From a virus (lineage: Duplodnaviria > Caudoviricetes), in the IMG/VR virus record IMGVR_UViG_3300037067_018912, positions 32,001 to 96,000 of that record: 64,000 nt of DNA; one strand, given 5' to 3'. Below the pieces are notes generated by a model, which was not told the DNA's origin, ran no database searches, and was given only the letters and a program-made list of their open reading frames with translations. Positions 10,577 to 64,000 of this stretch are shown here, piece by piece. A program made the translations under genes and the position numbers. Numbering within the stretch: the first letter of the stretch is position 1; every line of letters begins with the position of its first letter.

Positions 10577-10594
10577 TTTCAGTGTATTTTATCA

Positions 10595-11920: not shown

Positions 11921-12922
11921 ATGATTTTATTTAAAATCTTGGCATGGATTGTAATGCTTTACGGTATTGTTGCGTTCATTTTGCGCTTCATAAAAGTGGA
12001 AAGGGAAGTAAGAAATGAAACAGGTCGGACAGTAACGGTCAACGAACCTGTCAAATTACCGTTCGTACTGCCGACACTACTCATTGGTTTGGTTTTTGTC
12101 ATTCTGTTGTCATTAATTGTGAAGATCGGTCCACAAGACGTGGGTGTTCTTGTAAAACCGGGTGGTGTTAATGATGATGAACTCCATACAGGTTGGCATC
12201 TCGTCGCTCCTTGGTGTGAAGTTCATAAAATGGATAAAACCGTGTGGGTTTACACTTGTGCACATTCTACAGGCGAAGGAGCAAAACCCAGTACGGACGC
12301 TATTTGGTCTCCAACCAAGGATGGTATTAAGATGGGGTTGGATGTGTCAGTGTCGTGGAAAATTATGCCCAATGAAGCATCATGGATTTATCAGAACGTC
12401 ACCGAAAATGATGGTGGCAATACGGGCAGATATATTTGGTTGGAAGAAAACGTTATTCGTACCAAATTAAAATCCGCACTTGCATTAACGGTGAGTAGTT
12501 ATACTCCAATTGAGGTTTACAGTACCAAGCGTCAGGAAATCCAAGATGAAGTCCTCAAAAGGATAATAAGTGAAGTTAAGGGGTATAAACTTATCATTGA
12601 TCAGGTTGATATCCGTGAAGTCTATTATAGTGTTGAATTTGAAAAGGCTATTGATGCTAAGAAACTTGCCGAACAGGAGGTTTTGAGACTTGTTGAAGTA
12701 ACGAAGCAACAGGCTGAGAAACTCAAACAAGCCGAAATCAATAAGAACATTGCCATTGAACAAGCGATGGGTGAAGCAAAAGCATTGCAGATCAAGGGTA
12801 CGTCTGTTGCTGCCAATCCCAAGATTATCCAACTTGAATGGATCAACAAATGGGATGGCAAACTTCCTGTCTACATGATGGGCAACGGACAGGACGTAAT
12901 TTTAAGCCTGCCAAACAAATAA
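11921..12922 (+). CDS. SPFH/band 7/prohibitin membrane protein
   Basis: Two N-terminal TMs, TKDG..MGLDVSV, AIDAKKLAEQ, WINKWDGKLP. Confidence 0.9.
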   Translation: MILFKILAWIVMLYGIVAFILRFIKVEREVRNETGRTVTVNEPVKLPFVLPTLLIGLVFVILLSLIVKIGPQDVGVLVKPGGVNDDELHTGWHLVAPWCEVHKMDKTVWVYTCAHSTGEGAKPSTDAIWSPTKDGIKMGLDVSVSWKIMPNEASWIYQNVTENDGGNTGRYIWLEENVIRTKLKSALALTVSSYTPIEVYSTKRQEIQDEVLKRIISEVKGYKLIIDQVDIREVYYSVEFEKAIDAKKLAEQEVLRLVEVTKQQAEKLKQAEINKNIAIEQAMGEAKALQIKGTSVAANPKIIQLEWINKWDGKLPVYMMGNGQDVILSLPNK

Positions 12923-12955
12923 CACAAACTGCTAATTATATCAACTTGGAAATTA

Positions 12956-12980
12956 AGGAGAGGGCAACCTCTCCTTTTTT
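12956..12980 (+). terminator. Rho-independent terminator
   Basis: AAGGAGAGG-GCAA-CCTCTCCTTTTTT. Confidence 0.85.
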
Positions 12981-12981
12981 A

Positions 12982-13013
12982 TTTGCTTATTAATTATTTA
13001 TTTTCTACATTTG
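12982..13013 (+). promoter_or_regulatory. Bacteroidota primary-sigma promoter
   Basis: TTTG-N20-TACATTTG. Confidence 0.7.
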
Positions 13014-13030
13014 ACCAAACAAAATTTAAA

Positions 13031-13618
13031 ATGGCTGATGTTAAAATAACATATACCGAAGAGTTTAAGAACCTCGGTCACCTTATGCTCGATCTTGAAA
13101 CAATGGGTACTCGTCCGGGTTGTGCGATTGTTTCCATCGGAGCAGTTGAATTCGATATTGAGACTGGGAAGTTCGGCAGGCATTTTTATGAACGTGTTGA
13201 ACTTCAATCTTGTTTGGATGTGGGTCTCTTTGTTGAGGCACATACAGTTTATTGGTGGATGCAACAAAGCGAAGCAGCACGGAAAGAGATTTATAATCCC
13301 GATAATAGAATTGATTTACATACTGCACTCACAAAATTGGGTTCATTTATGGCAGATTTAGAGGTTTTTTATATTTGGGGTAATGGTGCAAGTTTCGACT
13401 TTGGTATTCTTCAAGCAGCAGTATACGCCTCCGGATATAAGAAAGTGCCTTGGAATTTTAGATTGGAGAGAGACGTCCGGACGATTACTATGATCGCACC
13501 TGAAATGAAACAATCCATGCCGTTTTGCGGCACAGTACATAATGCTCTCGACGATTGTATTCACCAAATCAAATACGTTTCAGAGATTTGGAAAACTCAC
13601 ATCAAGAAGAAATTATAA
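13031..13618 (+). CDS. DEDDh 3'-5' exonuclease (DUF5051-like)
   Basis: LMLDLETMG, WGNGASFD, RDVRT, HNALDD. Confidence 0.9.
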   Translation: MADVKITYTEEFKNLGHLMLDLETMGTRPGCAIVSIGAVEFDIETGKFGRHFYERVELQSCLDVGLFVEAHTVYWWMQQSEAARKEIYNPDNRIDLHTALTKLGSFMADLEVFYIWGNGASFDFGILQAAVYASGYKKVPWNFRLERDVRTITMIAPEMKQSMPFCGTVHNALDDCIHQIKYVSEIWKTHIKKKL

Positions 13619-47695: not shown

Positions 47696-48427
47696 TTAGA
47701 ATTTCAATATCATATTATCCCTGTCAACATAAACCACACCGTATGTGTTCGTCCCGCCTGTTAACGAGATGTTCGGGTCGAGCCAATCCGTATAAGCATT
47801 CAAATCAATTTGGTAATCAGGTATGATTAAATCTTTTGAATACCTGTATTTAAAATATGTCTCAATAAAACCTGCCTGAAATGAGATCGTTCCGGCTATA
47901 GTCTTAGATGGTCCACTCATAGATTCAATAACTTCGGCATGTATTTGGTCACTAACATCGAGATAGGTGAACTGACTACTGCCCGTGACACCTGTAATTG
48001 GATTTATGGCAGTTATTGAATATGATACAGTTCTGTTTGACGCTAATGGCTCACCATTCAATGTTTTGAACCATAAATAAAGCATTATGTTCGTATCCAC
48101 CGGGGTATCACCAAAATAATGCTCTGAACGATTCGTGGCATCTTCATTGAATATCAACAAGGTGTCTTGTGATTGGCCGACAACCATGCGATCCCCCGGA
48201 ACAACCGTTGTGGTTGTTGTTGTAACGAAAGGATCGACGATTATTTCCTTTTCATAAACACATCCATTCGAATCAGTGAAAACAAGAGTATATTCTCCAT
48301 CTTCCACATCAATAAACGAATATGTCCCCGTCTCAGTATGAACGTTCGCCGGAATGAAACTCGGTGTCAGTTCAACTGTAACAGGCATCGCCCCGTTTGT
48401 TATAGTATAAAAAATCGTCGCCGCCAT
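47696..48427 (-). CDS. Virion protein with SprB-repeat-like N-domain and poly-Thr linker
   Basis: GEYTLVFTDSNGC; VTTTTTTVVP. Confidence 0.65.
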   Translation of the reverse strand: MAATIFYTITNGAMPVTVELTPSFIPANVHTETGTYSFIDVEDGEYTLVFTDSNGCVYEKEIIVDPFVTTTTTTVVPGDRMVVGQSQDTLLIFNEDATNRSEHYFGDTPVDTNIMLYLWFKTLNGEPLASNRTVSYSITAINPITGVTGSSQFTYLDVSDQIHAEVIESMSGPSKTIAGTISFQAGFIETYFKYRYSKDLIIPDYQIDLNAYTDWLDPNISLTGGTNTYGVVYVDRDNMILKF

Positions 48428-48440
48428 TTATTCAATTCTA

Positions 48441-49688
48441 TTATTCTATTGAAGGAACTGTCCCTCCACCTGTTGTTGGAGCAGCACCGCTTACATATGA
48501 AGTTTCATTCGTCCTTTTCGTTGTTGATGTGGTGCGTGTCACATCTTCACTTCCACTCACTGCATGGATACAAACACATCCTTTTGTTGCAAAATAATGA
48601 GTCAAATCAGAACCAACTGTGACATATGATTTACTCCAAAATACATAATTGGAAAGAGCGGATTTTGTTATGTTGTTCAACACCAACGAACCATTCTGTG
48701 AAACGATATGTGTCCCACTGGAAGAAAGTGCAGTTGCTTTAGTGGTTTTTGTTGCCCCTTGATAATAATATGCACAAGAATAAACCGCCCTGAGTGTATT
48801 TTGGGTGTCCGTATTCGCAATAAAATTAATCGTCACATCAAAAGTTTCCGCATCCGATAAATAACCATCAAGAGCCAAACATGAACTGCGAGTCCATTCT
48901 ATTCCACCACTATCTCCGTCCAACGGGTCCATCGTATTCGTCAAGGTTTTAAAACAAAGTATTGCAGGTCCAAGAGTTGGAGGTGCTGCCGTTGTTGTTG
49001 GTGCAACATAATTAAGATTCGATTCCTTGCAATATGTGCTCTGAACAGGTGCACAAGATAATGTAAACGTCCCCGTATTAGCCGTAAGTCCTGCGACTTT
49101 TATTCTCGCATATCCGCTTCCTTCGAGTGCGCTTGTCTGCAATGATGTGCTCAGACTCCATGTTATTGCATCTCCATAATTAACTGTTTTTGTAATGTAT
49201 GTAATGGGATTGCAAGAATTGTTAGCATTGAGATACTGCCCAAAACTTACGTTTGTGCCACCACATGTCGCACAATTAAATGAGACACTATTGTTTGTGT
49301 TATTCGTATTGCACGTGACAAGGCATAATTTAACATCATAACTTTCACCAGGTTGCAGATTTGGACTTGTGCAAAGGCACGTGTTTCTGTATGCACAAGA
49401 TTTTACACTTGGCATATATCCCTCACCAACCAACATAATAGTCTTTGGAGTGGCCAAATCCGGTATGTAATGTGCCGGAGTTGAACGTGTACAACCGCTA
49501 ACATTTCCAATTTGGTCTGTCACTTTCACACAATATGAAGTGTTCGGTAACAACGAACTGATCGTCACACAAGTACCAGAATAGTCGATTCCTTTTTGGT
49601 AATCGTATGAACAAGCACCAACCGCTTTGCAGACCTGAATGAGAAACGGTGGTTTATCTCCACATATCTTGAATTTAATTTCCGCCAT
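48441..49688 (-). CDS. Cys-rich virion protein with repeated beta-rich modules
   Basis: About 21 Cys in 415 aa (hand count); PTTTAAPPT linker. Confidence 0.7.
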   Translation of the reverse strand: MAEIKFKICGDKPPFLIQVCKAVGACSYDYQKGIDYSGTCVTISSLLPNTSYCVKVTDQIGNVSGCTRSTPAHYIPDLATPKTIMLVGEGYMPSVKSCAYRNTCLCTSPNLQPGESYDVKLCLVTCNTNNTNNSVSFNCATCGGTNVSFGQYLNANNSCNPITYITKTVNYGDAITWSLSTSLQTSALEGSGYARIKVAGLTANTGTFTLSCAPVQSTYCKESNLNYVAPTTTAAPPTLGPAILCFKTLTNTMDPLDGDSGGIEWTRSSCLALDGYLSDAETFDVTINFIANTDTQNTLRAVYSCAYYYQGATKTTKATALSSSGTHIVSQNGSLVLNNITKSALSNYVFWSKSYVTVGSDLTHYFATKGCVCIHAVSGSEDVTRTTSTTKRTNETSYVSGAAPTTGGGTVPSIE

Positions 49689-49690
49689 AA

Positions 49691-51916
49691 TTAACTGATT
49701 GTTACCGTATTACTATAATTTCTTTGTTCTATTATTATATTGTCTTTCCTCACCCTCATCGAAATTTTATACACTCCATCCTCGGTGACAGGTATGTATG
49801 TCGTGGACATTCCATTAGCACTCACCCAATTCAATGGAACTGAATTGGATTTGTATACACTGATTTCAACGGCAGCGTAACCAGTTAAGAGTGCATACAT
49901 TGGCATGGTCATGTAGTTGCTTACCGAGATATATGTGCCCATGTAACCCGATGTGTATGATGTGGTGATTGTCGTATTCAACAATGGCGTCGGTATTGCT
50001 ATATAATCCTTCTGTACATAGAGATATGGTGTGGATGTACCTTTATCACGAATATAAATCGTATACTTAGCCTTCGGCGTCGATGGCAGAGTGATAATAT
50101 TCGATGTCTGCCATGCAGGATCACTTAACAGCGGATATGTTCCGACCGGATACGTCCCATAAGGTTTGGCAATGAAATATGGTGTTAATCCATATGGATC
50201 ACCATAACCGCTTATTGTTATTCTATATTGATTACCACTTGTCGGAGCAATCGTGAAATTAGAATTCATTATGTTACTTGTACCTGTCACGTCGTATAAA
50301 CTTAATATGCTTGTCGGATCGGAAAGTGTCACAATTGTTGTCGGACAACCGAGTGCCCCTAAGTCATAAACTGTCACATAATACGTGCCTTCAGTCAAGC
50401 CAGTGATTTTAATACTAATATTTGGGTTGGCTATTGGTTCGAAATAAATCATACCTGTTGCACCAGTAACACTGAGTATGAGTTGACTTCCCGGAATATT
50501 ACCGTCGATGTCATAAATCATCAACCAACCGTTCGAACCACCAATCACTGTTGGACTGACTGTCTGTACATTAAATGTAATTGTACATGGAGCACAACCG
50601 ACAATGACACTATCATTAACGCCAACAGTATAATCCGGGAGAGTCCACGACCTATTGGACTTGTATGACATGGCAAACAATAACTCTTGGTCTTCAATAA
50701 CGAAAATCTTCAAATTATTGAACACTTTTCCCACTATATTACCATCCTCATCGGCCAAATCATAATAAGAGGTGGTTAGACCGGACAAGGATTTGACTGA
50801 TCCTGTAGCACTCAATTTCAACCCCAATGTGGCTTCCGATTTTTTATGCCACATTATTGTCGGAAGATAGATTTGTGGTAATTTAGCGGGGTCGTTCATT
50901 CCGAATTCCTCTGCATATGTATTTGAAGGAGAGGAATTGGTGTAATGAATCACCCCCAATTTTTTATAAACAGGTGATTGTCCTTGAATATATGAAACAA
51001 AACCACCGTATATCCGTGAATCGAAATTCACATATTTTGTGTCACCTGATTGAACTCCGGCAATTTCATCCGTAAAAATTATTGATAGATTCCAAAACGG
51101 AAATGTCACCGTAGGGCATTGACAATTCTCCAAGAACGCCAAGACGCTTTCGTTGACGAAATCGGTCGAATATTGATTGAACGCTGTGTTTCCAGAGAAA
51201 TTAACATAATTGTAGAATACGAGAGCACCTGCTGTAATACCTGTTGCACCACTCGTCATTCCACTGAAATTCGGTAATTCCCGATCAACAATAGCGGTTA
51301 AATTATTTGTTGAAAGTTTTCCGGAAACATCAACAATTTTATACATCAAGAATGGCTTTGGATCGTATTGTGAAGTCCATATTCCGCTTGTATCACCACC
51401 ATAAGTGGTAGTCCATTTAATCAACAAATAATCCCCCGGTTCGGGTTCATTGACATTTGCAAGGTATTGTGGGGATTTACGTAATGCGAGAGTTGTTCCA
51501 CCAGTAACATTTGAAATCAACACCATTACATCCGGTTGTTTGATATGGTCAGTATCTGTTATGAAAGAAAAACTATTGCCACTTATGTTGAAAAAACCAA
51601 GAGTTTGAACTGTGTTTACAACGGGTGTTACCGTTACAGGAATGCTTGAGATTTCATTATACTCGCTATCTGTCGTACTTTTCTTGATGAAGGATAAAAG
51701 ACTCGGATTCTTGTCCGCAGGTCTCAGTATTTGTGAATAAAACGGCGTGTATTCATCATCCACGGCTTCCACTTCGGAATTGAATTGATAATCCATTTCG
51801 CTATCACCAATGGCGAAGTATTTGAAATCCAACAATCCTCTGGACAGTTGCTCCCTGCCTTTCGAAGTCAGTTTGATATTTAAAACTACTGGGTCTTTTT
51901 TATCGATGAAAGCCAT
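49691..51916 (-). CDS. Baseplate/tail structural protein with C-terminal SprB-like domains
   Basis: KLTSKGR.QL..G...F.YFAIGDSE.DY N-terminus; TGLTEGTYYVTVYD..GC. Confidence 0.75.
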   Translation of the reverse strand: MAFIDKKDPVVLNIKLTSKGREQLSRGLLDFKYFAIGDSEMDYQFNSEVEAVDDEYTPFYSQILRPADKNPSLLSFIKKSTTDSEYNEISSIPVTVTPVVNTVQTLGFFNISGNSFSFITDTDHIKQPDVMVLISNVTGGTTLALRKSPQYLANVNEPEPGDYLLIKWTTTYGGDTSGIWTSQYDPKPFLMYKIVDVSGKLSTNNLTAIVDRELPNFSGMTSGATGITAGALVFYNYVNFSGNTAFNQYSTDFVNESVLAFLENCQCPTVTFPFWNLSIIFTDEIAGVQSGDTKYVNFDSRIYGGFVSYIQGQSPVYKKLGVIHYTNSSPSNTYAEEFGMNDPAKLPQIYLPTIMWHKKSEATLGLKLSATGSVKSLSGLTTSYYDLADEDGNIVGKVFNNLKIFVIEDQELLFAMSYKSNRSWTLPDYTVGVNDSVIVGCAPCTITFNVQTVSPTVIGGSNGWLMIYDIDGNIPGSQLILSVTGATGMIYFEPIANPNISIKITGLTEGTYYVTVYDLGALGCPTTIVTLSDPTSILSLYDVTGTSNIMNSNFTIAPTSGNQYRITISGYGDPYGLTPYFIAKPYGTYPVGTYPLLSDPAWQTSNIITLPSTPKAKYTIYIRDKGTSTPYLYVQKDYIAIPTPLLNTTITTSYTSGYMGTYISVSNYMTMPMYALLTGYAAVEISVYKSNSVPLNWVSANGMSTTYIPVTEDGVYKISMRVRKDNIIIEQRNYSNTVTIS

Positions 51917-51954
51917 TTTATTTACATTTTAACATAAATACAATTAATTTTACT

Positions 51955-54261
51955 TTATGGTCTGCATACATATTTTTTATAACACGTTCCAGGTATCACC
52001 GGGGTAATATCAGGACTTGCTGACAAACTTTGAATACAAAGATCAGCGCACGTACCATTGCTCATGGTATTTAAAACACCAATATAATAGCACAAACAAT
52101 CGTTGGTACACATTCTAATTGTACCGCTATAACTACTTGGATGTGGTCCACCGCTTGCACTTGTTAATGTATGTGTGCATTTCAATGTGAACGTACCGCA
52201 CACACCACCCTTACAATAGATTTTAACGAATGCAGTTCCGGCATTGATAAGAAGTAACGATCCTCCATAAGAAACATCAATACTCTGATATGTCGTCGTC
52301 ATTGCCGGAAGAACGCAGAAGCAACCTGTGTCATATTTGTAACCATCAAGATCAACACCTCCATAGATTCCATGCAGACATACCGTCCTTGAAACAGGTG
52401 TGGTACTTAAACAACGACAATTCGAGCATTTTGTGATGGTAGGATTTATCGACGGATCGACACCAATACTACCAATGATGGTGGTCAAACATACGTGACT
52501 GCACGAACCATTATTACCATAAGCACTGTTAGCAAACTGTATTGTATCACCGTAATTAATAATCATTGACCCGGTAAATGCATCATTATTTGTTTCCCCG
52601 ATAGCCGATGAAGTGGTGTGGGTTGCTTTATTGACAAATGACGACCCACCATTCGGCTTACAGGTAAACTGCAACGTACTTGTTCCACCCCAAACCGAGG
52701 CTTGTGTTAGATTATAATTTATTGTGACGTATTGTCCTGTTGCCAACGCAGGAGTGATTGTGAGCGTACCACTTCCGCCGTTTGTACCACCCGCAGTTTC
52801 ACAAAGTGCTGCAACCGTAGCCACTTTCGGCACGGTGACCGCTCTGCAAACACAATTTTCAGCCGCCACCGGACTGACTGATGGAACAAGACCAATAGAA
52901 CCTCCCACAGTTCCTAATGAGAGTTCAGCACAAGAACAATAACCCGCACCGGGTGCACTTAATGCAATACAATATTTCACCGAATCACCATACCTCATGG
53001 TGATAGTTTTTGTTGTGGGTGAAGAAGAATTGAAAACATCAACCACAACATGATCAGCAACACAGCAAGCACCACTTCTACAAAGTATCGTAGTTGTCGA
53101 TGTACCACCACCGGACGCCGGATTTACTCCAAACAAATTAATATCCAAACATTCTCCTGAAGGTAATGGTTGACTCAACATGATTGAACCACACGTTACA
53201 CACTGCGTTGGTGACGATACAACAGATGTTGGAGTTCCAAGACAAATTGTGACATCTTGCGTTGGATTATATGCATTAAGCGTTACAAAACAATTCGTGA
53301 TATCTATTGTCGGTTGGAACGTCCTATGACCGTCAGCATCCGTTAAACAGAAACTGGAAATTGCTTCAGAACCCAAGTTTCCATATATCGTCCGAAGTTC
53401 ATAACACATGACATCCCCCTGTCCAAATGAAAGATTAACCAATTTTTCTTCATTTGGGTTGACGATTGAACAATATGTTTGAGTAGTTGAATTGCATCTG
53501 AAAATAACGCACGATACTGCTGCTGTTCCAACTGTTGTAGCATTTGCAAGAAGATTGACTGTCACACACTCCCCAACAATAAGGTTCGGAGTTACACACA
53601 CTTTACCAGTCTTATACGACACACCTCCACAAGTCACCACGCCCGCATACTGTCCGGTCAACACCAATTTAACACTTTTTGGTGCTAAAGTCGGTGTAGT
53701 ACTTGCAAGTAACAGGTACATATCGATTATTTTCGATTTTTTGAACAATTCAGCACCATTATAAAAATCACGAATTTGAAAACTATATGTCTTACTGTAA
53801 TCCAAACCCAAGAATGTGGCATTACTTTGCCATCCAGAATCATATGTTGTTCCAGACACCCTGTATTGTAATTCACCATTGGCTTGGCCTGCATTTACAA
53901 TCCTTGCACCATTGTCAAGGAATTTATATGCGAAGAAATCATCATTCAACATATCGTGTTCGAACGGATATCCAGGATTATAATAACTTGCTTCGTTAAA
54001 TAGGTTCTCTTTAGTTATTTCACTCTCAATCTGTTGAGTATCAAGGAAATCAATTACCCTCCTGTCAAAATCGATCTTCGATATTGCTTTCAAATCAGAG
54101 CATGTCAAAGCCACATAACTTTGAGATGTCACCGGATTGGTGTCACATGTAATCGTGAACGGGTTCATCAGGTTGCGGCATACGATTGCACTATAATTGG
54201 TGCTGATCCCGCTGCTGATCACCTCACTTAATTTAAGTATGTATTTCCTTGCATTATCCAT
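51955..54261 (-). CDS. Cys-rich virion protein with four ~135-aa tandem modules
   Basis: About 44 Cys in 768 aa (hand count); recurring P.L..G and YGD motifs. Confidence 0.75.
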   Translation of the reverse strand: MDNARKYILKLSEVISSGISTNYSAIVCRNLMNPFTITCDTNPVTSQSYVALTCSDLKAISKIDFDRRVIDFLDTQQIESEITKENLFNEASYYNPGYPFEHDMLNDDFFAYKFLDNGARIVNAGQANGELQYRVSGTTYDSGWQSNATFLGLDYSKTYSFQIRDFYNGAELFKKSKIIDMYLLLASTTPTLAPKSVKLVLTGQYAGVVTCGGVSYKTGKVCVTPNLIVGECVTVNLLANATTVGTAAVSCVIFRCNSTTQTYCSIVNPNEEKLVNLSFGQGDVMCYELRTIYGNLGSEAISSFCLTDADGHRTFQPTIDITNCFVTLNAYNPTQDVTICLGTPTSVVSSPTQCVTCGSIMLSQPLPSGECLDINLFGVNPASGGGTSTTTILCRSGACCVADHVVVDVFNSSSPTTKTITMRYGDSVKYCIALSAPGAGYCSCAELSLGTVGGSIGLVPSVSPVAAENCVCRAVTVPKVATVAALCETAGGTNGGSGTLTITPALATGQYVTINYNLTQASVWGGTSTLQFTCKPNGGSSFVNKATHTTSSAIGETNNDAFTGSMIINYGDTIQFANSAYGNNGSCSHVCLTTIIGSIGVDPSINPTITKCSNCRCLSTTPVSRTVCLHGIYGGVDLDGYKYDTGCFCVLPAMTTTYQSIDVSYGGSLLLINAGTAFVKIYCKGGVCGTFTLKCTHTLTSASGGPHPSSYSGTIRMCTNDCLCYYIGVLNTMSNGTCADLCIQSLSASPDITPVIPGTCYKKYVCRP

Positions 54262-54263
54262 GA

Positions 54264-55178
54264 TTAAAACAATATATTGGCAAATGTCTTCTCAGTTTCT
54301 TTAATTTCTTTCACATAATTGAACCCACAATACTTGTTACTGCATTCAATCTCTTTATTGAACGGCGATTTTTGATAATTGGTCTTCAAAAAATAAATAC
54401 CGTTATTCAACACCGCACCCGCATTATGAAAAAGATGCGTTTCTTCCCATCTTTTCATAGGATCAGTCGCCCAAGAAAAATTCAATCTTTTAGTTATTTT
54501 TGTTTTATGCCCGGCACGCCATGCATTCCATAACAACGCCCACATGTCCGCAGTCCAAGCCTGTATCGGGTTCTCCGAGTTGTATTTATACGATGTGGCA
54601 ATCATATGACTGAACAAGTTTTCGCTATCGTTTTCAACCTTTTTCCAAAAATCTGCATCAACGTTTTTCATCAAATATTGCGCACCCCCGGCATTTTCAT
54701 CATTCATCTCGACCACTTTCGGGTCTATACCGACAATCTCACACATTTCCATGAACAATCCCTCACCCTTGCTCTTAATATATTTGCTGTCAATATATGA
54801 ACGAGTATCGCTCAAATACCAAACATCGTCTTTTTCAAGATCGCTCGTTTTTAGTTTCTTTGTGAATATCACGTCAGGGTCAATGTAAAATATTGGTTCA
54901 TTCTCCAATTCGGGATGCTTCTCGAAGAACTTGGAAATAATATGCGGCCTCATCGATGATGAATATTGCGGACTTGTCCTTGTATCATTCAACACATGAA
55001 ATTGAGCATTCACATTGCCACTTAAAATTCTCATAAGAGTTGCACTCGGCTCGCAAGTTCGCTTGCCAATGAGATAAATAACATCCTTTTCCAAACCAAA
55101 TTTTTTGAAATTATTGATTTGGACAAGCATCTGCCACAAAAAATAACTGTTATCCGGTAACGCAACCAATATTTTCAT
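54264..55178 (-). CDS. GT-A fold glycosyltransferase resembling plant peptidyl-Ser/Hyp O-glycosyltransferases
   Basis: YFLWQ, Y...RPH, YIDPDVIF (DxD), GGAQY, WTADMWA. Confidence 0.65.
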   Translation of the reverse strand: MKILVALPDNSYFLWQMLVQINNFKKFGLEKDVIYLIGKRTCEPSATLMRILSGNVNAQFHVLNDTRTSPQYSSSMRPHIISKFFEKHPELENEPIFYIDPDVIFTKKLKTSDLEKDDVWYLSDTRSYIDSKYIKSKGEGLFMEMCEIVGIDPKVVEMNDENAGGAQYLMKNVDADFWKKVENDSENLFSHMIATSYKYNSENPIQAWTADMWALLWNAWRAGHKTKITKRLNFSWATDPMKRWEETHLFHNAGAVLNNGIYFLKTNYQKSPFNKEIECSNKYCGFNYVKEIKETEKTFANILF

Positions 55179-55180
55179 AA

Positions 55181-58100
55181 CTATAACGTTTTATATGCTT
55201 CCATAATAATCGAACTGCCTGGCACGAACGAAAAATCACCCATGCTTGGCGTAACATCCACCACTTCTACCGTAAATACTGTCTTTGACAAAGCGTCTGA
55301 AGTTATTGCTGTGGCTTGATTCTCAAATACGATATATAACGAATCTGAGTTCACCAATGAGACAGTTTGAGTGATGCCTGTATATGCACCCGGCGTATCA
55401 CGACTGATCGTCGGACCGACTTGGCCATCATTTAATGTAACTTCCGCCATCGCCCTATAAGTGTTAGAAGAAGAACCTGTTAGGAACATGTCAAACCTCA
55501 ATCTCAACGTAACCTCATATCCCGGCGGTATCAACGGCTCAAAAAGTATGTCTCTGGTTTCATACTTGGCAATCCCCGTACCTCCACCAATCGATATTTG
55601 AGTAAAACTCGACTGATAAAGAGTTATCAATGAATTATATGGTGCTTGTGTCGTCGTCGTGGTTGTAATGGGGTATGAAACAATAATATTATCGATGATA
55701 AGATTAACACACAAATCATCAATCCTGACATTATCATCAGTCCATTCAACATCCACCGATTTGGGTCTTTTCAGAAATGTGCTCCCATCGTCACCGAAGT
55801 AAAACAATGCGGAGTCCTGATTAACACCACGTTTGTATGTGAATTTCTGCTTAGTGAATATACTATTCCTTATCAAAAGTCCCGACTTTCTCAGGATTAT
55901 GGTTGCCGACAACATTTGATCAACAAACCTGTTGAAAAAAGTGTTGTATTTACTCAAAAATGAATATAAATTGGCAAATGTGTAACCATTTGATTGCAAA
56001 GGATTACTATCTGCAAGTCTTGCCCTATTGAGATAATCAATATAAACCCTTAAAAGCGTTGGATACCACCCACCTTTGGAATCTGTAACAGTCTTCCTGT
56101 TTGTGGCGTTTATCATCCTTTGCTCCATCAATATCAAGAATTCAAGGAACGACATTTGACTTATGTCACCAAGACCGAAATTCTCACCGATCACCGGAGC
56201 AAAAAATTCATTACCCCCAACAAGATAGTAAACACTTATGACACTGCCATATTTCAAACCTTTCGGTAGGTATATCTCATACGGATTATTGGTATTCAAT
56301 GAATAATCTGTACCCGGTTCGAGTGCAATACCGTCGATCAGGACCTTAGCCTCGCTTGCGGCATTTAACTTGTAATTGAGTTTATAAACGTATTTATTGG
56401 CGGCATTGTTGAAATACAATTTCCCTGTACTGAAACTGTCGATCCTGAAAACTTCATTTCTTGCACTGACACCCGCATTCCCCGTAACATTTATATAAAC
56501 AACTTGAACCATCGGATTGACAGCCAAATATCCAATAACATCAGTATTTTGAATAACGATTTTGGTTGGATCATACGGGTCGATGATGTAATCTGCATTG
56601 AACTGCCCATTTCCTTTTGTTAATGCAATCCCGTTGATCGTTAATTGAATATCCCCGCTTGCTGGTGACGGAAGTTCCACAACCGTACCTGAAAGTTTCG
56701 CACTGACCCTTGTGACCATATATTGGACACTAATTCCTGTTATGGGTGTTGATGTTGTGCCTGAGTATATGTATGTTGCTTGAATGACATCTCTACGATT
56801 ACTCAAATTGATCGCCGGATTTGTTATCGTGAACGTATTCCCGGAAACAATATAATCGCTTTGTCCAACCATATCGGTTGGTATGCCCGTGGTAGTCCCA
56901 GATTTTGGTGCATTCAAAAGAATTCCATTATACCTAACTTCAAAATCTCCTTGCAGGTCATCGACCGACACTGGAAGAGTGAAAGTACTTTGTGATCCAC
57001 TGACACCCAATGAAAGATTAACATAATTGTATGAAAGAGTATATCCGCTTGAATTTGCCGGGAAATCAGTGTATTTTATATATCTGTACACATCATATTC
57101 AATTCCACGTGCCGTATCGAGAGAAATATCAACCTCTTTGGTGTTGATCACCAATTTACTGTCCTCTTGATAATATGTTGGTGTGGTGTCGTGCTCCCTT
57201 GTCGTTGCTCCGGTTTGAATCCAAGATTTTTTGTTGTCAACTGTTTGTTGCAAATCAAATCCTGCCATCCTGAACACATCAAGATATCTTTGACCGCTGT
57301 CTGTATTACCCGAAATTTGAAAGAAAAAATCGTTGGTTTCCAATGGTGCTGCAGGATAACCGTCAGTATCATATGGTAGTGAATTCGTCGGAAAATCCTC
57401 TTGGCTCAATGTCACCATGTTCGGATTTATCTTGCCGTCGACAGTGTAGACATATTCTGTGATATTAATAAACGGTTCAGGGATGCCGATTATCATGAAC
57501 ATCGATTTTATCGCTTCACGTGTACCCTTGGCTTTCCAATAATAATTGGTATTCATTATGATTCTACGCCAAAGTTCGATATCAATTTCCGCCGGAAGTA
57601 AATCTGTGTTTAAATTTCTCTCTTGATCGTCAATAGATAAAAGACTATCCACCAATTCACTTTCATTAAGAAGTGAAAAGTAATCCCAACCAAATGTTCT
57701 CGCCAAATTCCTTATTACTTGGTCGGGGGCATTATTTACCTTATCGTATGTTACTTTATTGATATGAACAAGGGAATCAATGAACTGTCTCATTTGATCG
57801 AATTCCCTGCCGTAAAGTCGTAAGAGTTTGGTCATCTTACCCTGATCGGTGAGATCATAGGTTTTAAGTGATTCCGGAGAGAGAAATCTTGCAATTAAAT
57901 CGGTTTTCACTGCATCATACTTCGCCCCAACCGTCAACATACCCTCAAGGAATGCCCTGTAAGTTGAATTATCAATATCGAGATTATATTTGTCACCTGT
58001 TGACCACGTAAATGACACATCAGTGTATATAACATCCCCATTTTCAAGCAGCAAAGGTTCTTTTATTATAAATTTGAATCCATTTACTCCATCTCTTTGA

Positions 58101-58876
58101 GATATCAGATATTTTTCATAATCATCAAGTTGTGTCCTAAATTCCTCAAAAACATAACTGTTGGGTTTGATGTGGAAATCAAAATATCCAACGGTCGTCC
58201 CGGTGAGTGTTGAAAATGGATTTCCAACGGTTTTCACAGTCAAATATGGTCGTCCTGAAGTGTTTCCCGTATAACCAATAATCTCATGGGTATTATCGTT
58301 TGAGTTTACTGACGTCCAAACGATATAATTACTATATGATGCATTAAGATTTTTAAATTCTTCAATCCCTGTCGCCCCTGTTTGTAGATAGTTGTATATC
58401 AGATTAAACTTGTTGATGATACAACCCACCGGGATTTTGAATGTCGAAATGTTCGACGGCACATCAAAAGAAAAATCAAAAACGGTTGAATTACCATAAA
58501 CCCCCGTGTTTGTGCTTAAAAACAGACTACCGGGATAGTTTAATATTATGTCTTGTATGGACGTTCTTAAAAATTCGTAGGCAGAACCGTATCTGACAAA
58601 AGTTTTCAAATCCGATCTATCGAGATTCAAGACAGCGTTCACCGTATAATCATACAATATCTCAGATTCAACGGTTGAATAACCCAACGTCTCCAACGTA
58701 ACAGGACGAACAAAAGTGCTCAACTCTGTAGAGTAATCAATCGGCACTCTTTGATCAAAATTCGTTGTGACTGAGAAACTTCCAAACGAAAATACCGTTT
58801 GAGAAGCCGTATTGTTAAAATTAACGCCGTTCAGATTCGAATCGAGGTTGTTATTTACGACTTTTACTTTTGCCAC
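55181..58876 (-). CDS. Large baseplate/tail structural protein (GTG start)
   Basis: GREFD, LARTFGW, KAKGTREAI motif; three (N/D)GI.L...DY repeats; poly-Thr linker. Confidence 0.8.
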   Translation of the reverse strand: MAKVKVVNNNLDSNLNGVNFNNTASQTVFSFGSFSVTTNFDQRVPIDYSTELSTFVRPVTLETLGYSTVESEILYDYTVNAVLNLDRSDLKTFVRYGSAYEFLRTSIQDIILNYPGSLFLSTNTGVYGNSTVFDFSFDVPSNISTFKIPVGCIINKFNLIYNYLQTGATGIEEFKNLNASYSNYIVWTSVNSNDNTHEIIGYTGNTSGRPYLTVKTVGNPFSTLTGTTVGYFDFHIKPNSYVFEEFRTQLDDYEKYLISQRDGVNGFKFIIKEPLLLENGDVIYTDVSFTWSTGDKYNLDIDNSTYRAFLEGMLTVGAKYDAVKTDLIARFLSPESLKTYDLTDQGKMTKLLRLYGREFDQMRQFIDSLVHINKVTYDKVNNAPDQVIRNLARTFGWDYFSLLNESELVDSLLSIDDQERNLNTDLLPAEIDIELWRRIIMNTNYYWKAKGTREAIKSMFMIIGIPEPFINITEYVYTVDGKINPNMVTLSQEDFPTNSLPYDTDGYPAAPLETNDFFFQISGNTDSGQRYLDVFRMAGFDLQQTVDNKKSWIQTGATTREHDTTPTYYQEDSKLVINTKEVDISLDTARGIEYDVYRYIKYTDFPANSSGYTLSYNYVNLSLGVSGSQSTFTLPVSVDDLQGDFEVRYNGILLNAPKSGTTTGIPTDMVGQSDYIVSGNTFTITNPAINLSNRRDVIQATYIYSGTTSTPITGISVQYMVTRVSAKLSGTVVELPSPASGDIQLTINGIALTKGNGQFNADYIIDPYDPTKIVIQNTDVIGYLAVNPMVQVVYINVTGNAGVSARNEVFRIDSFSTGKLYFNNAANKYVYKLNYKLNAASEAKVLIDGIALEPGTDYSLNTNNPYEIYLPKGLKYGSVISVYYLVGGNEFFAPVIGENFGLGDISQMSFLEFLILMEQRMINATNRKTVTDSKGGWYPTLLRVYIDYLNRARLADSNPLQSNGYTFANLYSFLSKYNTFFNRFVDQMLSATIILRKSGLLIRNSIFTKQKFTYKRGVNQDSALFYFGDDGSTFLKRPKSVDVEWTDDNVRIDDLCVNLIIDNIIVSYPITTTTTTQAPYNSLITLYQSSFTQISIGGGTGIAKYETRDILFEPLIPPGYEVTLRLRFDMFLTGSSSNTYRAMAEVTLNDGQVGPTISRDTPGAYTGITQTVSLVNSDSLYIVFENQATAITSDALSKTVFTVEVVDVTPSMGDFSFVPGSSIIMEAYKTL

Positions 58877-58933
58877 AATTTTAATGTTTTATATAAATAC
58901 GGTAAAACGAAAAAGATTGTGGCCGCACCGTAA

Positions 58934-59659
58934 TTAAAACCTGTAGTCCATCCCCATATAATTCAGCAACGGTGAGATCATTCCAAACGATTCCATATTA
59001 AATGGAGTATTTGTGCAATGATAGATTTTGAGATAGTGATCGTAATCGTAAGAATTTCCCCCGTGATAAACATAGACGTATAAATGCGGCATCCCTTTAA
59101 TAAGAAGTTCTTTTAAATGAAAGCATTTGGCAATTTCAACATCTTCACCATATTGAATATCATCGGGATATTTGTAATCAATACTTGTTTTGAACATGAT
59201 TGATGAAGGTATTCCACCAATATAATTATGTATTGACCATCTGTTTGTCGATAGAATATGTGTGTTCTTGAAATACATCATGAACTCCGTCAAAAGACAA
59301 TAATCGTAATCATCTCCAATTATGGCTTCGTATTGTTTCTCAATTCTTTCTGCATGACAGAGATCATCATCGTCCCATTGAACACAATAATCTCCGGAAG
59401 CATGATTTATCGACACATTTCTCAATGCCCCCATTGGAAGTTTGTGCTCATGATAAACCAATTTGATATTATGATCCTTATATTTATTCAAAAGGTCTAT
59501 TAATCCATTCCTGGTCTCAGTATCACAATCAGTTACCACCACCAATTCCTTATTTTTCCAAGTTTGATTGGCATAACAATATAATGCCCCATCAATAATT
59601 TCCGGGTTCACCCCCCTGGTGACCATAAGACAACTAATCAGCGGTTTTTCCTTGTTCAT
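58934..59659 (-). CDS. Glycosyltransferase family 2
   Basis: PLISCLMVT, QTW.NKELVVV, GALRN, QWDDDD, GED. Confidence 0.9.
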   Translation of the reverse strand: MNKEKPLISCLMVTRGVNPEIIDGALYCYANQTWKNKELVVVTDCDTETRNGLIDLLNKYKDHNIKLVYHEHKLPMGALRNVSINHASGDYCVQWDDDDLCHAERIEKQYEAIIGDDYDYCLLTEFMMYFKNTHILSTNRWSIHNYIGGIPSSIMFKTSIDYKYPDDIQYGEDVEIAKCFHLKELLIKGMPHLYVYVYHGGNSYDYDHYLKIYHCTNTPFNMESFGMISPLLNYMGMDYRF

Positions 59660-59663
59660 ATTC

Positions 59664-60389
59664 CTAATATCTGTATTCAAAACCCGCCTTATCGAGCATT
59701 GGCGTCACCTTATCGAGAACATCCATGTCAAAAGGGATTTTTGTTTCATTATATAAACTGAGATAATGATAATAATCATAACAGTTATGCCCATGATAGT
59801 TGTAAATATACAAAAACGGCATATTATCTACAAGACAACATTTTAATTTTGTATTCTCAGCGATTACAGTATCCTCACCCAAATGCGTTCCATCAGGATA
59901 TCTGTATTTAATATTCTTCCTAAACATTATGCTTGCGGGCTTACCAACAATCGAATAATGATCCGGCCATCTGTTCATCGACAATAATTTGGTGTTTCTG
60001 AAATACATCATGTAGTTCTTGAGAAGGCAATAATCATATCCTTTGCCATCAATCAAATGAAAAAATTGCTTTTCAATCCTTTCCGCATGATAAAGATCGT
60101 CATCATCCCATTGGATACAATAATCTCCGGAAGCGTTCCTGATTGAAACATTTCTTAAAGCACCTAATGGCATTTTTTTGTCCGGAATGGCAAGTTTAAT
60201 CTTTTCATCCTTGTATTTTTCCAAAAAGGCTTCAAGGCATTCCAAACTTATTGGATCACAATCAGGAACTATAACAAGTTCCTTGTTCTCATATGTTTGC
60301 GATATATAGCAATATATTGCATTATCGATGAAATTCAAGTTGGCTGCCCTCGTAACCATGAGGCAACTAACCAACGGTAATCCTGGCAT
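59664..60389 (-). CDS. Glycosyltransferase family 2 (tandem paralog)
   Basis: PLVSCLMVT, QTY.NKELVIV, GALRN, QWDDDD, GED. Confidence 0.9.
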   Translation of the reverse strand: MPGLPLVSCLMVTRAANLNFIDNAIYCYISQTYENKELVIVPDCDPISLECLEAFLEKYKDEKIKLAIPDKKMPLGALRNVSIRNASGDYCIQWDDDDLYHAERIEKQFFHLIDGKGYDYCLLKNYMMYFRNTKLLSMNRWPDHYSIVGKPASIMFRKNIKYRYPDGTHLGEDTVIAENTKLKCCLVDNMPFLYIYNYHGHNCYDYYHYLSLYNETKIPFDMDVLDKVTPMLDKAGFEYRY

Positions 60390-60410
60390 TGCAAATAAAC
60401 GTTTTAAAAA

Positions 60411-61319
60411 CTACTGCACTTCGCTCGTTATGTCGTCGAAATTCTGCGTTTCGTCGATATTTTCTCTTTTTTCCTTAACTTCAAACAGTGGGACGTTTGT
60501 GGTATCATCCTTGATTTCATACAGGTTAATTTGTTTGGTTATCGCCCTGTCTTTATTGTAATATGTTAAAATGCCTTTTTGAACATCTTTAATCTGTTCA
60601 CCCGCCACAACATCCATTATCGTGTCAAGCGTGTTCTCCACGAGTTCAACTTCGATTGTCAATGGGGTAAAAAATGTATTTGATAACAACATTTCTTGTC
60701 CCGGCGTGCCGATGAATGGATATGAATTCGGCTTAACGTCCGATGAACTGCTTGGCGTTAATTGAATGAAAACAAGTGAACCAGAATCATCGAAACGGTA
60801 TCTTTGTGTTTTCTGACTCGTGTTTCCAACATTCTCGCTAACCGCCACAACCTTATTCGAAGTCACCACATACCTGAAAACATTGCGTAATTTCGTATTG
60901 TCAGAATTAATGTACTCAATACGGTATCCTTGCAAAGCATTGTTTGCCCTCAATCCATCAGGAAGATCATTAAGGTTGACCACCAATCCTTTAATCGTAG
61001 GAAGTGCCGACAAAACACCGCAATCCTTAATCTCGATAGGTTCGAGCACTTTGGGTTTTATGTAAATCGTATAAATCCCCAATTGATTAAAAATTGATGC
61101 GGGAAGTCTCAGGTTATAAAGACCTTCCAAAAGATTTTCATAGCCAACCCGCTGTTCACTTTGCGGCAGGTAGCAATACGACAACATATCACTTGGCGAT
61201 TCGATCTTGAATATGTCGTCGTTCAACGTCTGCCTGTCAGGGATATAGTTGTAATAAATGTCGATGTCTTCGATGCTGACATCTGCAGGTCTTGTTATAC
61301 CGTATGTTCCTATCGCCAT
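60411..61319 (-). CDS. Virion structural protein (baseplate module)
   Basis: Position in the baseplate operon. Confidence 0.65.
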   Translation of the reverse strand: MAIGTYGITRPADVSIEDIDIYYNYIPDRQTLNDDIFKIESPSDMLSYCYLPQSEQRVGYENLLEGLYNLRLPASIFNQLGIYTIYIKPKVLEPIEIKDCGVLSALPTIKGLVVNLNDLPDGLRANNALQGYRIEYINSDNTKLRNVFRYVVTSNKVVAVSENVGNTSQKTQRYRFDDSGSLVFIQLTPSSSSDVKPNSYPFIGTPGQEMLLSNTFFTPLTIEVELVENTLDTIMDVVAGEQIKDVQKGILTYYNKDRAITKQINLYEIKDDTTNVPLFEVKEKRENIDETQNFDDITSEVQ

Positions 61320-61769: not shown

Positions 61770-62360
61770 TTATTCTATTTCATATCCAACCACCGCTTGT
61801 TGATTTTTCAAGAAATATATTGTCATACCATATCCAATCTTCCCTTCCGCATTTCTTGCAAATGCCCTGAAATATATTTTATTACCAACAAATTGCAATA
61901 AAGCAATTTTTATTGAGTATAAAACATTTATGTTGATCGAATTCTCGATTGATGTTTTTTTAACCTTAACATCCGAATTGTTGTATAATAATGTTGCATT
62001 TGTAGTATAAAATTCTGAGGCAATCACCCCGTATTCAACAATGGGTGAGCCACCCGTGTTTGTCACTTTATTGCCACTGACCCCCATAAATACACCAACA
62101 GTGCTCGCAACTCCTGTAACCACTGTTGGAGCGATTGTTGTACCGCCCAATGTACCAGAAAGGGTAGTAGTCCCACCTTCAACAGCAGTATTCCCGGTAG
62201 TGTATGCATCGAAAAATCCCATATCCTGCGCTTCTTGCGTCAGACAGACTTTGAATGTATAATAGATATTTATGTCCGGTATAATGATGCAACATTCCGT
62301 ACAACCCGTGGTTGCTCCGGTGGTCATCACACGCTGTATGGTCTTTTTCAAAACTTCCAT
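61770..62360 (-). CDS. Virion structural protein with C-terminal FN3-like domain
   Basis: PTVVT...VTNTGGSPIVEYGV...YFRAFARN.EG..YG. Confidence 0.6.
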   Translation of the reverse strand: MEVLKKTIQRVMTTGATTGCTECCIIIPDINIYYTFKVCLTQEAQDMGFFDAYTTGNTAVEGGTTTLSGTLGGTTIAPTVVTGVASTVGVFMGVSGNKVTNTGGSPIVEYGVIASEFYTTNATLLYNNSDVKVKKTSIENSININVLYSIKIALLQFVGNKIYFRAFARNAEGKIGYGMTIYFLKNQQAVVGYEIE

Positions 62361-64000
62361 TATACAATCTTCTTTCTCAAATATACCTTAATATCCTTTT
62401 CGGGATACCTGATTTCGAACATCGAATCCTCTGTTGAATGTATTGTATTGTTTACGAGGTCTATCTCACCTGTTGTTGTATTCACAATATTTTGTGGAAT
62501 GACGTTGTTTGAATACTGACCGCCGACTTTATTATAAACTTTGATGCTAATAACGTTTACTACCCCATTTGCCTGCAATATCTGCCTTTGTAATTGGCCG
62601 AGGAACACGTCTTGGTTCATCTCGTAATCGTTGATGTCAAAATATTCCTTAACAAGAGATATTATGCTATTGGCCACTTGATTATCAGCGATGTTTTCGA
62701 CATATACGTCAATATCAAACGCTAAATTAAATATCTTACCGTCTTTAACCTCAACATAGTCGTTGATCATGCGATATTGGGACAAATATTCCGCAATATT
62801 GTCCTTCAACAGCGAATTACTCGTGTTTGACAACTTCCCATCAGACCCCAATCCGAGAATTGAGATCACGACTTTATTATTTTGTTTAAAAACATTGGTA
62901 CGGAATGGTGATCCGAACTTCCCCGGCATCTTGTAAATCTGCATCAAATAATCTGTAAGGGTGACATTCCGGTACTGTCCCGAAAAATTATATTTTACCA
63001 ACTGCCTGATCTGTTCCACACTCAACCCATCATTTCCACCTATCGCCGGGATCGGATTGTTCGCCATTAAACTTCTTTGGACAGCCTGGTTGAGATCAGA
63101 ACGTGAACCAAGAACCCTCAAATTGTAACTGCCGAGTTGCGTCAATACGCCGCTTCCAAGATTCGATGCACTACCGCCCCCTGTCCTGTATTTCACGAAC
63201 AGCGTATATCCGGCTTTAAGTTTCTCACCCAAAGCAGTGTTATTCAAAAAATTTTCAAGGAAACCACGGTTGCTGACCCCTTCTTTCAAGAACCCCTCGG
63301 TAAATGCGTTGACATCAGCATCACCAGACCCAAAGGTTAATTTACAAAAACCGTTTGCAGTGAATTCTTTGATGAATTTTTTCGTTACATCAATCCACCT
63401 ACCTGCTTTCAAACCATTTGTATTGGTATTGGCTTGTGAACTATTAGTGTTCTCAACGAAAACTTTTTGTTGAGCCAAGTAGTCCACTTCGTAATACCTG
63501 TAATCGTCATTATAAAAATCACTCATGGAAGGGTTCGACGAATAATTCGTACCTTCCAAAAGGATAATACTTTCAATCTCAATAATACTTGGATCGGGCA
63601 ATGTCACAGAGAAGAATGGTATAACATCCCCCGCAGTTATGGTTCTCTTAAAAATATTTGTTGAACCGTTTATTACAACCTCCCGTTTGGTTACACTGTA
63701 ATTCTGAATGATTCCATTAGAGTCCAAGTTTGGAATTATCGAACGATTTGGGTCTCCGAGCGTGCTTATTGCAGAACTCCAATCAATGTTTTCCTGTGTC
63801 TCAAATGTTTTTCCGCCGCCAACCACCTGCGCACCTTTTTCAAGCACAGGATAATATGACACATCCGGTCTATCTCCAAGGACGGGAACGTTTACGGTGA
63901 AATCAATGACCGTCACTGACGCTCTGCGTGCGGGAATGTTGAAACCCATATTTTTTGCAATATTCAATATGGATGCTTTTTGTTGCGCATATTCAAGTTG
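62360..64000 (-). CDS. Baseplate wedge protein (T4 gp6-like), 5' end outside the window
   Basis: NIAK.MG, FGSG, YRTGGG..SN, NP.PA.GG.D..S.EQIR, Q.R.VT..DY; frame open to the window edge. Confidence 0.85.
   Translation of the reverse strand, partial: QLEYAQQKASILNIAKNMGFNIPARRASVTVIDFTVNVPVLGDRPDVSYYPVLEKGAQVVGGGKTFETQENIDWSSAISTLGDPNRSIIPNLDSNGIIQNYSVTKREVVINGSTNIFKRTITAGDVIPFFSVTLPDPSIIEIESIILLEGTNYSSNPSMSDFYNDDYRYYEVDYLAQQKVFVENTNSSQANTNTNGLKAGRWIDVTKKFIKEFTANGFCKLTFGSGDADVNAFTEGFLKEGVSNRGFLENFLNNTALGEKLKAGYTLFVKYRTGGGSASNLGSGVLTQLGSYNLRVLGSRSDLNQAVQRSLMANNPIPAIGGNDGLSVEQIRQLVKYNFSGQYRNVTLTDYLMQIYKMPGKFGSPFRTNVFKQNNKVVISILGLGSDGKLSNTSNSLLKDNIAEYLSQYRMINDYVEVKDGKIFNLAFDIDVYVENIADNQVANSIISLVKEYFDINDYEMNQDVFLGQLQRQILQANGVVNVISIKVYNKVGGQYSNNVIPQNIVNTTTGEIDLVNNTIHSTEDSMFEIRYPEKDIKVYLRKKIV

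Follow-up and report, generated by a model that had tools for sequence, protein, structure and literature searches.

Predicted glycosylation of threonine tracts in virion proteins by a GT8-like phage enzyme family, as read from a jumbo phage genome

Glycosylation of phage virions is already known: in the mycobacteriophages Che8, Corndog and Myrna, glycosyltransferases encoded by the phage modify its own virion proteins in the cytoplasm, the glycans being borne on the C-terminal ends of the subunits of capsid and tail tube (Freeman et al. 2023, according to the summaries in PMC12619734 and PMC12363180). In this work, we describe a locus at positions 47696-60389 of a 64,000-nucleotide stretch (hereafter, the window), corresponding to bases 32001-96000 of the IMG/VR virus record IMGVR_UViG_3300037067_018912, which is the complete genome of a jumbo phage, 357,275 bp long and provided with direct terminal repeats. 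Three putative glycosyltransferase genes are found there, one of which, at 54264-55178, encodes an enzyme that quite probably glycosylates threonine (Thr) tracts in the virion proteins of the same phage. To our knowledge, virion glycosylation has been shown experimentally so far only for mycobacteriophages. The pairing of poly-Thr with the family to which this enzyme belongs, PHROG 4417, is computationally well supported, as judged from gene content and position, and a literature search found no paper linking poly-Thr tags with these enzymes.

As in the mycobacteriophages, a predicted transferase encoded by the phage is genetically tied to putative virion proteins; moreover, mycobacteriophage glycans are found on the same proteins, and at the same ends, as the poly-Thr tails of the Firmicutes phages endowed with PHROG 4417. 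There are also differences. The enzyme family appears to be another one, no Mycobacterium phage being present among 77 phage records matched by tblastn (E <= 1e-5), the proposed acceptor is a Thr-only tract, and the system described here is a predicted one. In addition, the tracts of the present genome connect domains within baseplate or fibre proteins, instead of forming tails on capsid and tube, and the transferase gene lies within the structural operon. Chlorovirus PBCV-1, with its A64R protein, and mimivirus, for its fibrils, also use transferases and sugar-nucleotide enzymes of their own for virion glycosylation (PMC9614988). The phage analyzed here resembles them in possessing a PseB/FnlA-like dehydratase, a WecB epimerase, methyltransferases and at least 9 GT2 matches, and A64R is found among the structural matches of its enzyme (Z 11.2); the giant viruses differ in their eukaryotic hosts and in the attachment chemistry, which is N-linked or of other types. 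Four core putative glycosyltransferases, with targets left unassigned, have been described in a 2025 paper on aquatic jumbo 'moraphages'.

The gene on which the analysis is centred is the following.

54264..55178, minus strand: candidate poly-Thr protein O-glycosyltransferase, 304 amino acids (aa); phrog_4417, GT8-like GT-A fold, poly-Thr co-occurrence

Its product matches PHROG 4417, annotated as 'unknown function', practically end to end (E 7.7e-67, residues 1-296 on positions 1-292 of the 293 of the profile), and has no match in Pfam or NCBIfam. A previous reading of the locus, based on sequence only, had pointed to the motifs YFLWQ, RPH, DPD and WTADMW, all of which are found in the product, and to the tight packing of the gene, which is indeed separated by exactly 2 nucleotides from the neighbour on each side. 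The residues D100 and D102, forming a DxD motif, and H251 are invariant across 40 homologues. The AlphaFold model, built on the alignment of these homologues, features a GT-A fold (predicted local distance difference test, pLDDT, 96.2; predicted template modelling score, pTM, 0.92), and the entire sequence is accounted for by a single compact GT-A domain, with no additional segment. When the model was compared with representative PDB structures, the best matches, predominantly GT-A enzymes, were glycogenin (Z 15.0), the Skp1 alpha-galactosyltransferase (14.5), LgtC (14.3) and the catalytic domain of UGGT (14.0), followed by WbbM (13.9), GlyE, from the glycosylation of serine-rich-repeat adhesins (13.2), LARGE1 (12.9) and the already mentioned A64R. 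Foldseek agrees in indicating GT8-type retaining enzymes as the nearest solved folds, and in a library of viral structures two family members rank first, GT8 being the annotation of several of the viral proteins that come next. A Rossmann-like fold, the DxD motif and a putative metal-binding His in the C-terminal part thus concur in the model to describe a metal-dependent GT-A glycosyltransferase, whose catalytic activity is predicted.

Several GT8-type enzymes glycosylate proteins in the cytoplasm. The likeness of the phage enzyme to members of this group (glycogenin, Skp1 galactosyltransferase, LgtC, UGGT and GlyE; Z 13-15 over 210-243 residues, with shared DxD and C-terminal His) is confined to the fold level, since sequence identity amounts to 7-15%, no Pfam or PDB profile match is found and the proposed acceptor is a different one. 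By sequence, it is not a GT8 member: the Pfam Glyco_transf_8 model (PF01501) finds no match at E <= 10 in the whole genome, while matches were obtained in 6 control genomes. Similarly, nothing meaningful was retrieved from PDB sequences by using either the single sequence or the family profile, and the Pfam DUF7164 model has no match in the genome. Fusions to GT2, Glyco_transf_7C or methyltransferase domains are seen in some homologues.

HPAT (GT95) and SGT1 (GT96) are plant enzymes, which put the first sugar on hydroxy-amino acids of Pro/Ser-rich proteins of the extensin type. The phage enzyme had been likened to them, and what it would share with the plant and algal proteins is the initiating transfer of a sugar to protein hydroxy-amino acids; the acceptor is hydroxyproline or Ser for HPAT and SGT1, in contrast to the Thr tracts proposed here. 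The suggested kinship did not find support, as no Pfam HPAT match was obtained and the nearest solved folds, such as glycogenin, LgtC and UGGT, are of the GT8 type. Specifically, the HPAT model (PF23452) gave no match at E <= 10 in the genome or in five carrier phages, in a search for which a positive control is lacking, and the best E-value among the 40 homologues was 0.23. GT95 and GT96 entries are absent from the PDB structure matches, and we know of no solved structure for either family. A protein-language-model search retrieved phage clusters in which 10% of the members carry PF23452, and this is best taken as a lead only.

An indication of what the enzyme may act upon comes from its neighbours. 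Five proteins are encoded around it on the same strand.

47696..48427, minus strand: two-domain protein, 243 aa; Thr6 linker at 48206-48223, checked by translation
48441..49688, minus strand: Cys-rich protein, 415 aa; linker APTTTAAPPT at 48975-49004; weak fn3 and tail-fibre gp32 Pfam matches
49691..51916, minus strand: protein of 741 aa, probably fibre; conserved N-terminal part of about 440 aa, variable C-terminal part
51955..54261, minus strand: Cys-rich variable protein, 768 aa; Thr/Pro linker (ASTTPT) at 53689-53706
55181..58876, minus strand: putative tail/baseplate protein, 1231 aa; conserved body, Thr6 tether (55649-55666), variable C-terminal beta-sandwich

All four of the Thr/Pro linkers previously quoted for these proteins are present. 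Thr6 runs are found only twice in the whole 109,730-residue proteome, both times within this cluster, against about 0.01 expected for independent residues. Five related genomes (246-365 kb) were searched for a pattern of six Thr codons: in four of them all matches fall, on the same strand, within the 21-kb locus of the enzyme, and the fifth features none. The chance of such a placement of Thr6 at random is about 7e-13, a figure which overstates the case, because orthologous sites are not independent.

Comparison was extended to 19 related viral loci, 18 of which belong to the same clade. In all 18 the enzyme gene, with identity down to 34%, is found downstream of the gene for the 1231-aa protein, immediately so in 15, and the orthologues of its neighbours retain Thr tracts at the same sites, often lengthened up to Thr28 or to mucin-like Thr/Pro arrays. 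Most orthologues of the 1231-aa protein have poly-Thr at the same position; those of the 768-aa protein are 27-46% identical, and two of them feature Thr4 at the same site; runs from Thr8 to Thr10 replace the linker of the 415-aa protein, and Thr6 is retained, following the same VDP motif, in orthologues of the 243-aa one. For the 741-aa protein, identity within the clade is 43-53% over the N-terminal part, and tracts from Thr5 to Thr28 are found in orthologues right after this conserved part. Thr codons are mixed within the tracts, indicating selection on the protein rather than slippage of the DNA. One 362-kb relative, L024 (positions 9040-10903 and 10943-13576), carries both a fibre-like protein with 28 uninterrupted threonines and two tandem copies of the enzyme gene, whose products are 33% and 42% identical to the one described here.

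The same association is found in distant phages. Seven cultured carriers of the family were considered, namely the Enterococcus phages phiFL1A and VPE25, the Lactobacillus phages iLp84 and Semele, the Clostridium phage phiCTP1, a Staphylococcus siphophage and the Chryseobacterium phage MA9V-3, and in all seven poly-Thr tracts occur in proteins adjoining the enzyme gene. In five siphophages, the tracts are located on annotated capsid, decoration or tail-tube proteins, usually as a C-terminal tail. Within the head-tail module, the gene follows that for the tail tube in phiFL1A and phiCTP1 and those for capsid and decoration proteins in iLp84, and in VPE25 is close to the one for the capsid; in the Staphylococcus siphophage it belongs to the structural module, and in the myophage Semele it is next to a small 'major tail protein', amid non-structural genes. 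Altogether, PHROG 4417 genes are embedded in structural operons in 8 lineages.

Further evidence was obtained from 80 loci in bacterial genomes, where runs of at least five threonines (Thr5+) are 66 within 3 kb of the gene (447 kb of sequence) and only 4 at distances between 3 and 10 kb (852 kb); the corresponding runs of Ser, Ala, Asn, Gly, Lys, Glu, Asp, Gln and Pro range from 0 to 3 each. The association is a property of stand-alone genes, encoding about 300 aa: Thr5+ runs are found in 16 out of 26 such loci, in contrast to 1 out of 54 for the forms fused at their C-terminus (Fisher p = 3e-9). Five of the ten stand-alone loci devoid of poly-Thr are contigs shorter than 7.4 kb, and the stand-alone form found in a Staphylococcus aureus genome (L224) is accompanied by (TST)n tails. 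The fused forms are a second branch of the family, observed in Bacteroidota (loci L154-L228, Elizabethkingia also being represented), in which the enzyme domain is followed by C-terminal extensions of about 150-600 aa.

The reverse search leads to the same result. When 118 viral loci were chosen solely for a Thr8-coding pattern, the family was found within the short flanks of 7, its density in phage records setting the expectation at about 0.03. As a negative control, homologues of the phiFL1A tail tube were compared: in five phages lacking the enzyme (two from Streptococcus and one each from Pediococcus, Lactobacillus and Bacillus) they end without poly-Thr, while in two carriers they end in Thr6-Thr7. 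None of the 77 carrier phage records is from Streptococcus, Bacillus or Pediococcus. Co-occurrence of the family with Thr-rich virion proteins had been set beforehand as a check, and it is observed in the clade, in distant phages and in bacterial loci, with the control in agreement. The proposal that the 54264 enzyme primes Thr/Ser linkers is thus sustained as regards the tie to Thr tracts, which rests on this co-occurrence and on the tail-less relatives lacking the enzyme. The accompanying notion of an enrichment in TG/SG dipeptides did not find support, the excess being marginal: [ST]G dipeptides are overall close to compositional expectation, exceeding it only in the 741-aa (19 vs 11) and 1231-aa (25 vs 15) proteins, with no excess in the other three.

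There is moderate evidence that the proteins surrounding the enzyme in the present genome are virion proteins. We accept them as such because domains of the tailspike or fibre type are predicted in the 1231-aa protein, and because the 741-aa protein shows the conservation pattern of a fibre, with a conserved N-terminal and a variable C-terminal part, for which reason it is probably one. In the 1231-aa protein, residues 616-705 resemble a domain common to CBA120 TSP4 and to the N-terminus of T7 gp17 (Z 8.8, root-mean-square deviation 1.7 over 64 residues), and the remaining structure matches of the model are, with few exceptions, chains from the tails, necks or baseplates of phages. The Thr6 run, at residues 1071-1077, is modelled with low pLDDT, just ahead of a beta-sandwich (residues 1083-1189) weakly similar to carbohydrate-binding and fibre-tip domains (Z 5-7), and would thus tether the latter to the body of the protein. 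Pfam, PHROGs and profile searches against PDB gave no usable match for the 1231-, 741- and 302-aa proteins, the last being a conserved protein of the same module listed below, and no common repeat was found by blastp among six proteins of the cluster at E <= 1e-3. The 768- and 415-aa proteins are the most Cys-rich among the large proteins of the phage (5.7% and 5.1%, compared with 1.3% in the proteome), which is unusual for folding in the bacterial cytoplasm.

These observations suggest the following mechanism. The 304-aa product, with its GT8-like GT-A fold, is taken to be a metal-dependent glycosyltransferase, soluble and located in the cytoplasm, which, during late gene expression, most likely transfers a sugar from a nucleotide-sugar to the hydroxyls of Thr tracts in the virion proteins of the phage. 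In this genome the acceptor tracts would be the interdomain tethers of the distal baseplate or fibre proteins of 1231, 768, 415 and 243 aa, and the products short, mucin-like, sugar-coated linkers. Thr as the acceptor and the identity of the sugar are deduced rather than observed, as is a retaining transfer, producing an alpha-linked first sugar, which is suggested by the GT8-like fold. Since the family adjoins Thr-tract virion proteins in many unrelated phages, the particle is probably sugar-coated.

A number of points weigh against this interpretation. All support for Thr glycosylation is comparative, and the glycan itself is predicted. The four linkers of this locus are short, two of them being merely of the Thr3 type; none of the proteins encoded downstream of the gp6-like baseplate gene directly matches a known virion protein in sequence, confidence is low (pLDDT 56) for the model of the 1231-aa protein, which covers 1190 residues, and recombination and replication genes adjoin the 3' side of the block. 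LgtC and WbbM, involved in the synthesis of lipo-oligosaccharide and O-antigen, are as near in fold as the protein-modifying relatives. Finally, three full-length stand-alone loci in Bacteroidota genomes are without poly-Thr nearby, and the same is true for 53 out of 54 fused forms, found in Chitinophaga, Pedobacter and Sphingobacterium chromosomes; both groups indicate that the family has other acceptors too.

Some of these points would fit an enzyme which modifies a glycan of the host envelope, such as lipopolysaccharide, teichoic acid or capsule, or which builds a free glycan, its vicinity to structural genes being mere linkage. Besides the position of LgtC and WbbM among the nearest folds and the fused forms in Bacteroidota chromosomes, the similarity of the GT2 paralogs of the locus to the polysaccharide enzymes TuaG, EpsE and WcaA goes in this direction. 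Linkage, however, leaves unexplained why poly-Thr is found on unrelated capsid, tail-tube, decoration and fibre proteins only along with the enzyme, and why homologous tail tubes of phages lacking the enzyme are devoid of it; genomes of non-temperate type and late operons also harbour the gene. Because of this unexplained pairing, and because the protein consists of one compact GT-A domain, we consider a host-envelope target unlikely.

Alternatively, the poly-Thr tracts might be plain flexible spacers, unmodified or modified by the host, with the enzyme acting on other sites of the virion or as an assembly factor. Thr/Pro linkers are indeed widespread without known glycosylation, and the tracts are predicted to be disordered tethers. 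Mere flexibility would not, however, account for an enrichment which is specific for Thr and is not seen for Ser, Ala, Gly, Pro and other residues, nor for tracts which come and go with the enzyme, and the invariant DxD and His argue for a catalytic role; this explanation, too, appears improbable. Still more remote is the idea that the three transferases glycosylate bases of the phage DNA against restriction, as happens in T4 and in others whose DNA is hypermodified: although phage glycosyltransferases often act on DNA (10.1101/2023.12.21.572611; PMC13326640) and RuvC-like, SbcCD-like and primase genes adjoin the block, it was set aside, because a Tet/JBP-type dioxygenase was looked for in the genome and not found, the sole gene of the thymidylate synthase family scores as a true ThyA (282 bits vs a cut-off of 108), the pairing with poly-Thr would be unexplained, and the gene is flanked, in small siphophages, by those for tail tube and chaperone, rather than being grouped with replication genes. 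The thymidylate synthase gene (genome positions 214390-215454) encodes 354 aa, with an insertion of some 40 residues breaking the match to the family model in two.

Glycosylation of Thr tracts in virion proteins is also in keeping with the genomic setting of the enzyme, for which the remaining features of the locus have to be considered.

58934..59680, minus strand: GT2 paralog B, 248 aa; Pfam PF00535, E 7.5e-15
59664..60389, minus strand: GT2 paralog A, 241 aa; Pfam PF00535, E 4.4e-11
60411..61319, minus strand: conserved protein of the baseplate module, 302 aa; 57-80% identity in all related loci, always two genes before the phrog_4417 enzyme
62360..64000, minus strand, continuing to genome position 96210 past the window end: gp6-like baseplate wedge protein, 616 aa; phrog_219, E 1.8e-20
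just upstream of the gp6-like gene, outside the window: gp25-like wedge protein, 132 aa; Pfam GPW_gp25, E 2.7e-12, phrog_261 and phrog_43

Large genes occupy the minus strand starting at about 43.5 kb, through the end of the window and over tens of kb past it, and the open reading frames of 47696-60389 all lie on this strand, at the coordinates reported previously. Three glycosyltransferase genes are thus confirmed on one strand amid those for large proteins, 3' of the wedge genes. The term 'baseplate operon', used in the sequence-only reading, is justified for the upstream part, by the gp25-like (GPW_gp25) and gp6-like (phrog_219) genes. On the 3' side of 47696 the content switches to RuvC-like, SbcCD-like and primase genes and, with wedge genes upstream and these downstream, the locus appears as the distal portion of a block of baseplate and fibre genes. 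The order shared by the clade begins with the gp25-like and gp6-like proteins, a 148-aa protein, the 302-aa protein, for which no PDB, Pfam or PHROG match was found, and a variable slot; these are followed by the 1231-aa protein, the enzyme, the 768-, 741-, 415-, 243-like and 248-aa proteins and the RuvC-like one.

The slot, at 58877-60410 between the genes for the 302- and 1231-aa proteins, is a hot spot for cargo genes, and is occupied here by the two GT2 paralogs. That these are a tandem pair was borne out, as both exceed the Pfam Glycos_transf_2 cut-off of 23.3 bits (55.7 bits for the gene at 58934-59680 and 43.4 for that at 59664-60389, in agreement with the whole-genome search) and are 56% identical to each other (E 1e-95). 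The nearest NCBIfam models of paralog B are GT2 enzymes of the TuaG/EpsE/WcaA type, with scores far under the cut-offs. Their proposed role as conserved extenders of the glycan was not upheld: among the clade loci the pair is restricted to this genome and its nearest relatives (L010 and the near-identical locus L025), and is therefore accessory cargo, rather than a conserved partner of the enzyme. The slot was inspected in the other relatives (L011-L023) for alternative transferases, but was found to be empty or to contain either a DUF6734 gene or homing-endonuclease-like genes (with HTH_7 and DUF723/DUF4379 zinc fingers).

Glycan genes are numerous in this phage, and other transferases might therefore extend the first sugar, the candidates being the GT2 paralogs, a GT-B-like gene 5 kb upstream and an island of GT2 and sugar-nucleotide genes 85 kb away; we regard such an extension as possible, though rather doubtful. 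The GT-B-like gene (genome 99226-100608, beyond the window end) encodes 460 aa, matches phrog_7162 'glycosyltransferase' and, weakly, a Pfam model of the GT-B type, and is conserved in relatives at 55-83% identity. The island (genome 173025-185644, same strand) includes genes for an RfaE-like kinase, a 524-aa protein with two GT2 domains, an RmlD-like reductase, a PseB/FnlA-like UDP-GlcNAc 4,6-dehydratase, a WecB-type 2-epimerase and two methyltransferases, along with several more GT2 genes. From this gene content, the phage probably makes its own nucleotide sugar of the 6-deoxy-N-acetylhexosamine (6-deoxy-HexNAc) type; nothing supports a tie between the island, at 173-186 kb, and the 54264 locus.

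On a broader scale, a hitherto undescribed O-glycosylation system of the mucin type might be common to Bacillota and Bacteroidota phages as different in size as 36-kb siphophages and the present 357-kb myophage. It would be composed of a Thr-only tag on a virion protein, in the form of either a C-terminal tail or an interdomain tether, and of a stand-alone, cytoplasmic GT8-like transferase which glycosylates this tag. In the present phage the first sugar would be elaborated by about ten further transferases, by methyltransferases and by a sugar-nucleotide pathway of the 6-deoxy-HexNAc type, a set of enzymes that would bear comparison with those used by giant viruses for autonomous glycosylation. 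We put forward this generalization tentatively, as a reading that falls somewhat short of being probable.

If Thr tracts are glycosylated as proposed, virion glycosylation would be widespread, rather than a peculiarity of actinobacteriophages, and legible in sequence as a poly-Thr tag accompanied by an enzyme family, and a PHROG with hundreds of members would acquire a function. Glycan-shielded phages would be predicted, including those of Enterococcus, Staphylococcus and Lactobacillus which are used in therapy or are troublesome in fermentations, and the shield could affect antibody recognition, stability and adhesion. In the jumbo phage, the sugars might stiffen or protect the tethers of distal binding domains. 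The compact pair of enzyme and tag could, in addition, be of use for glycoengineering in the cytoplasm.

Outside the window, at genome positions 101962-106485, a 1507-aa protein combines a part similar to tRNA nucleotidyltransferases (phrog_2244, E 1.9e-69) with a polynucleotide-kinase-like part, and may be an RNA repair fusion.

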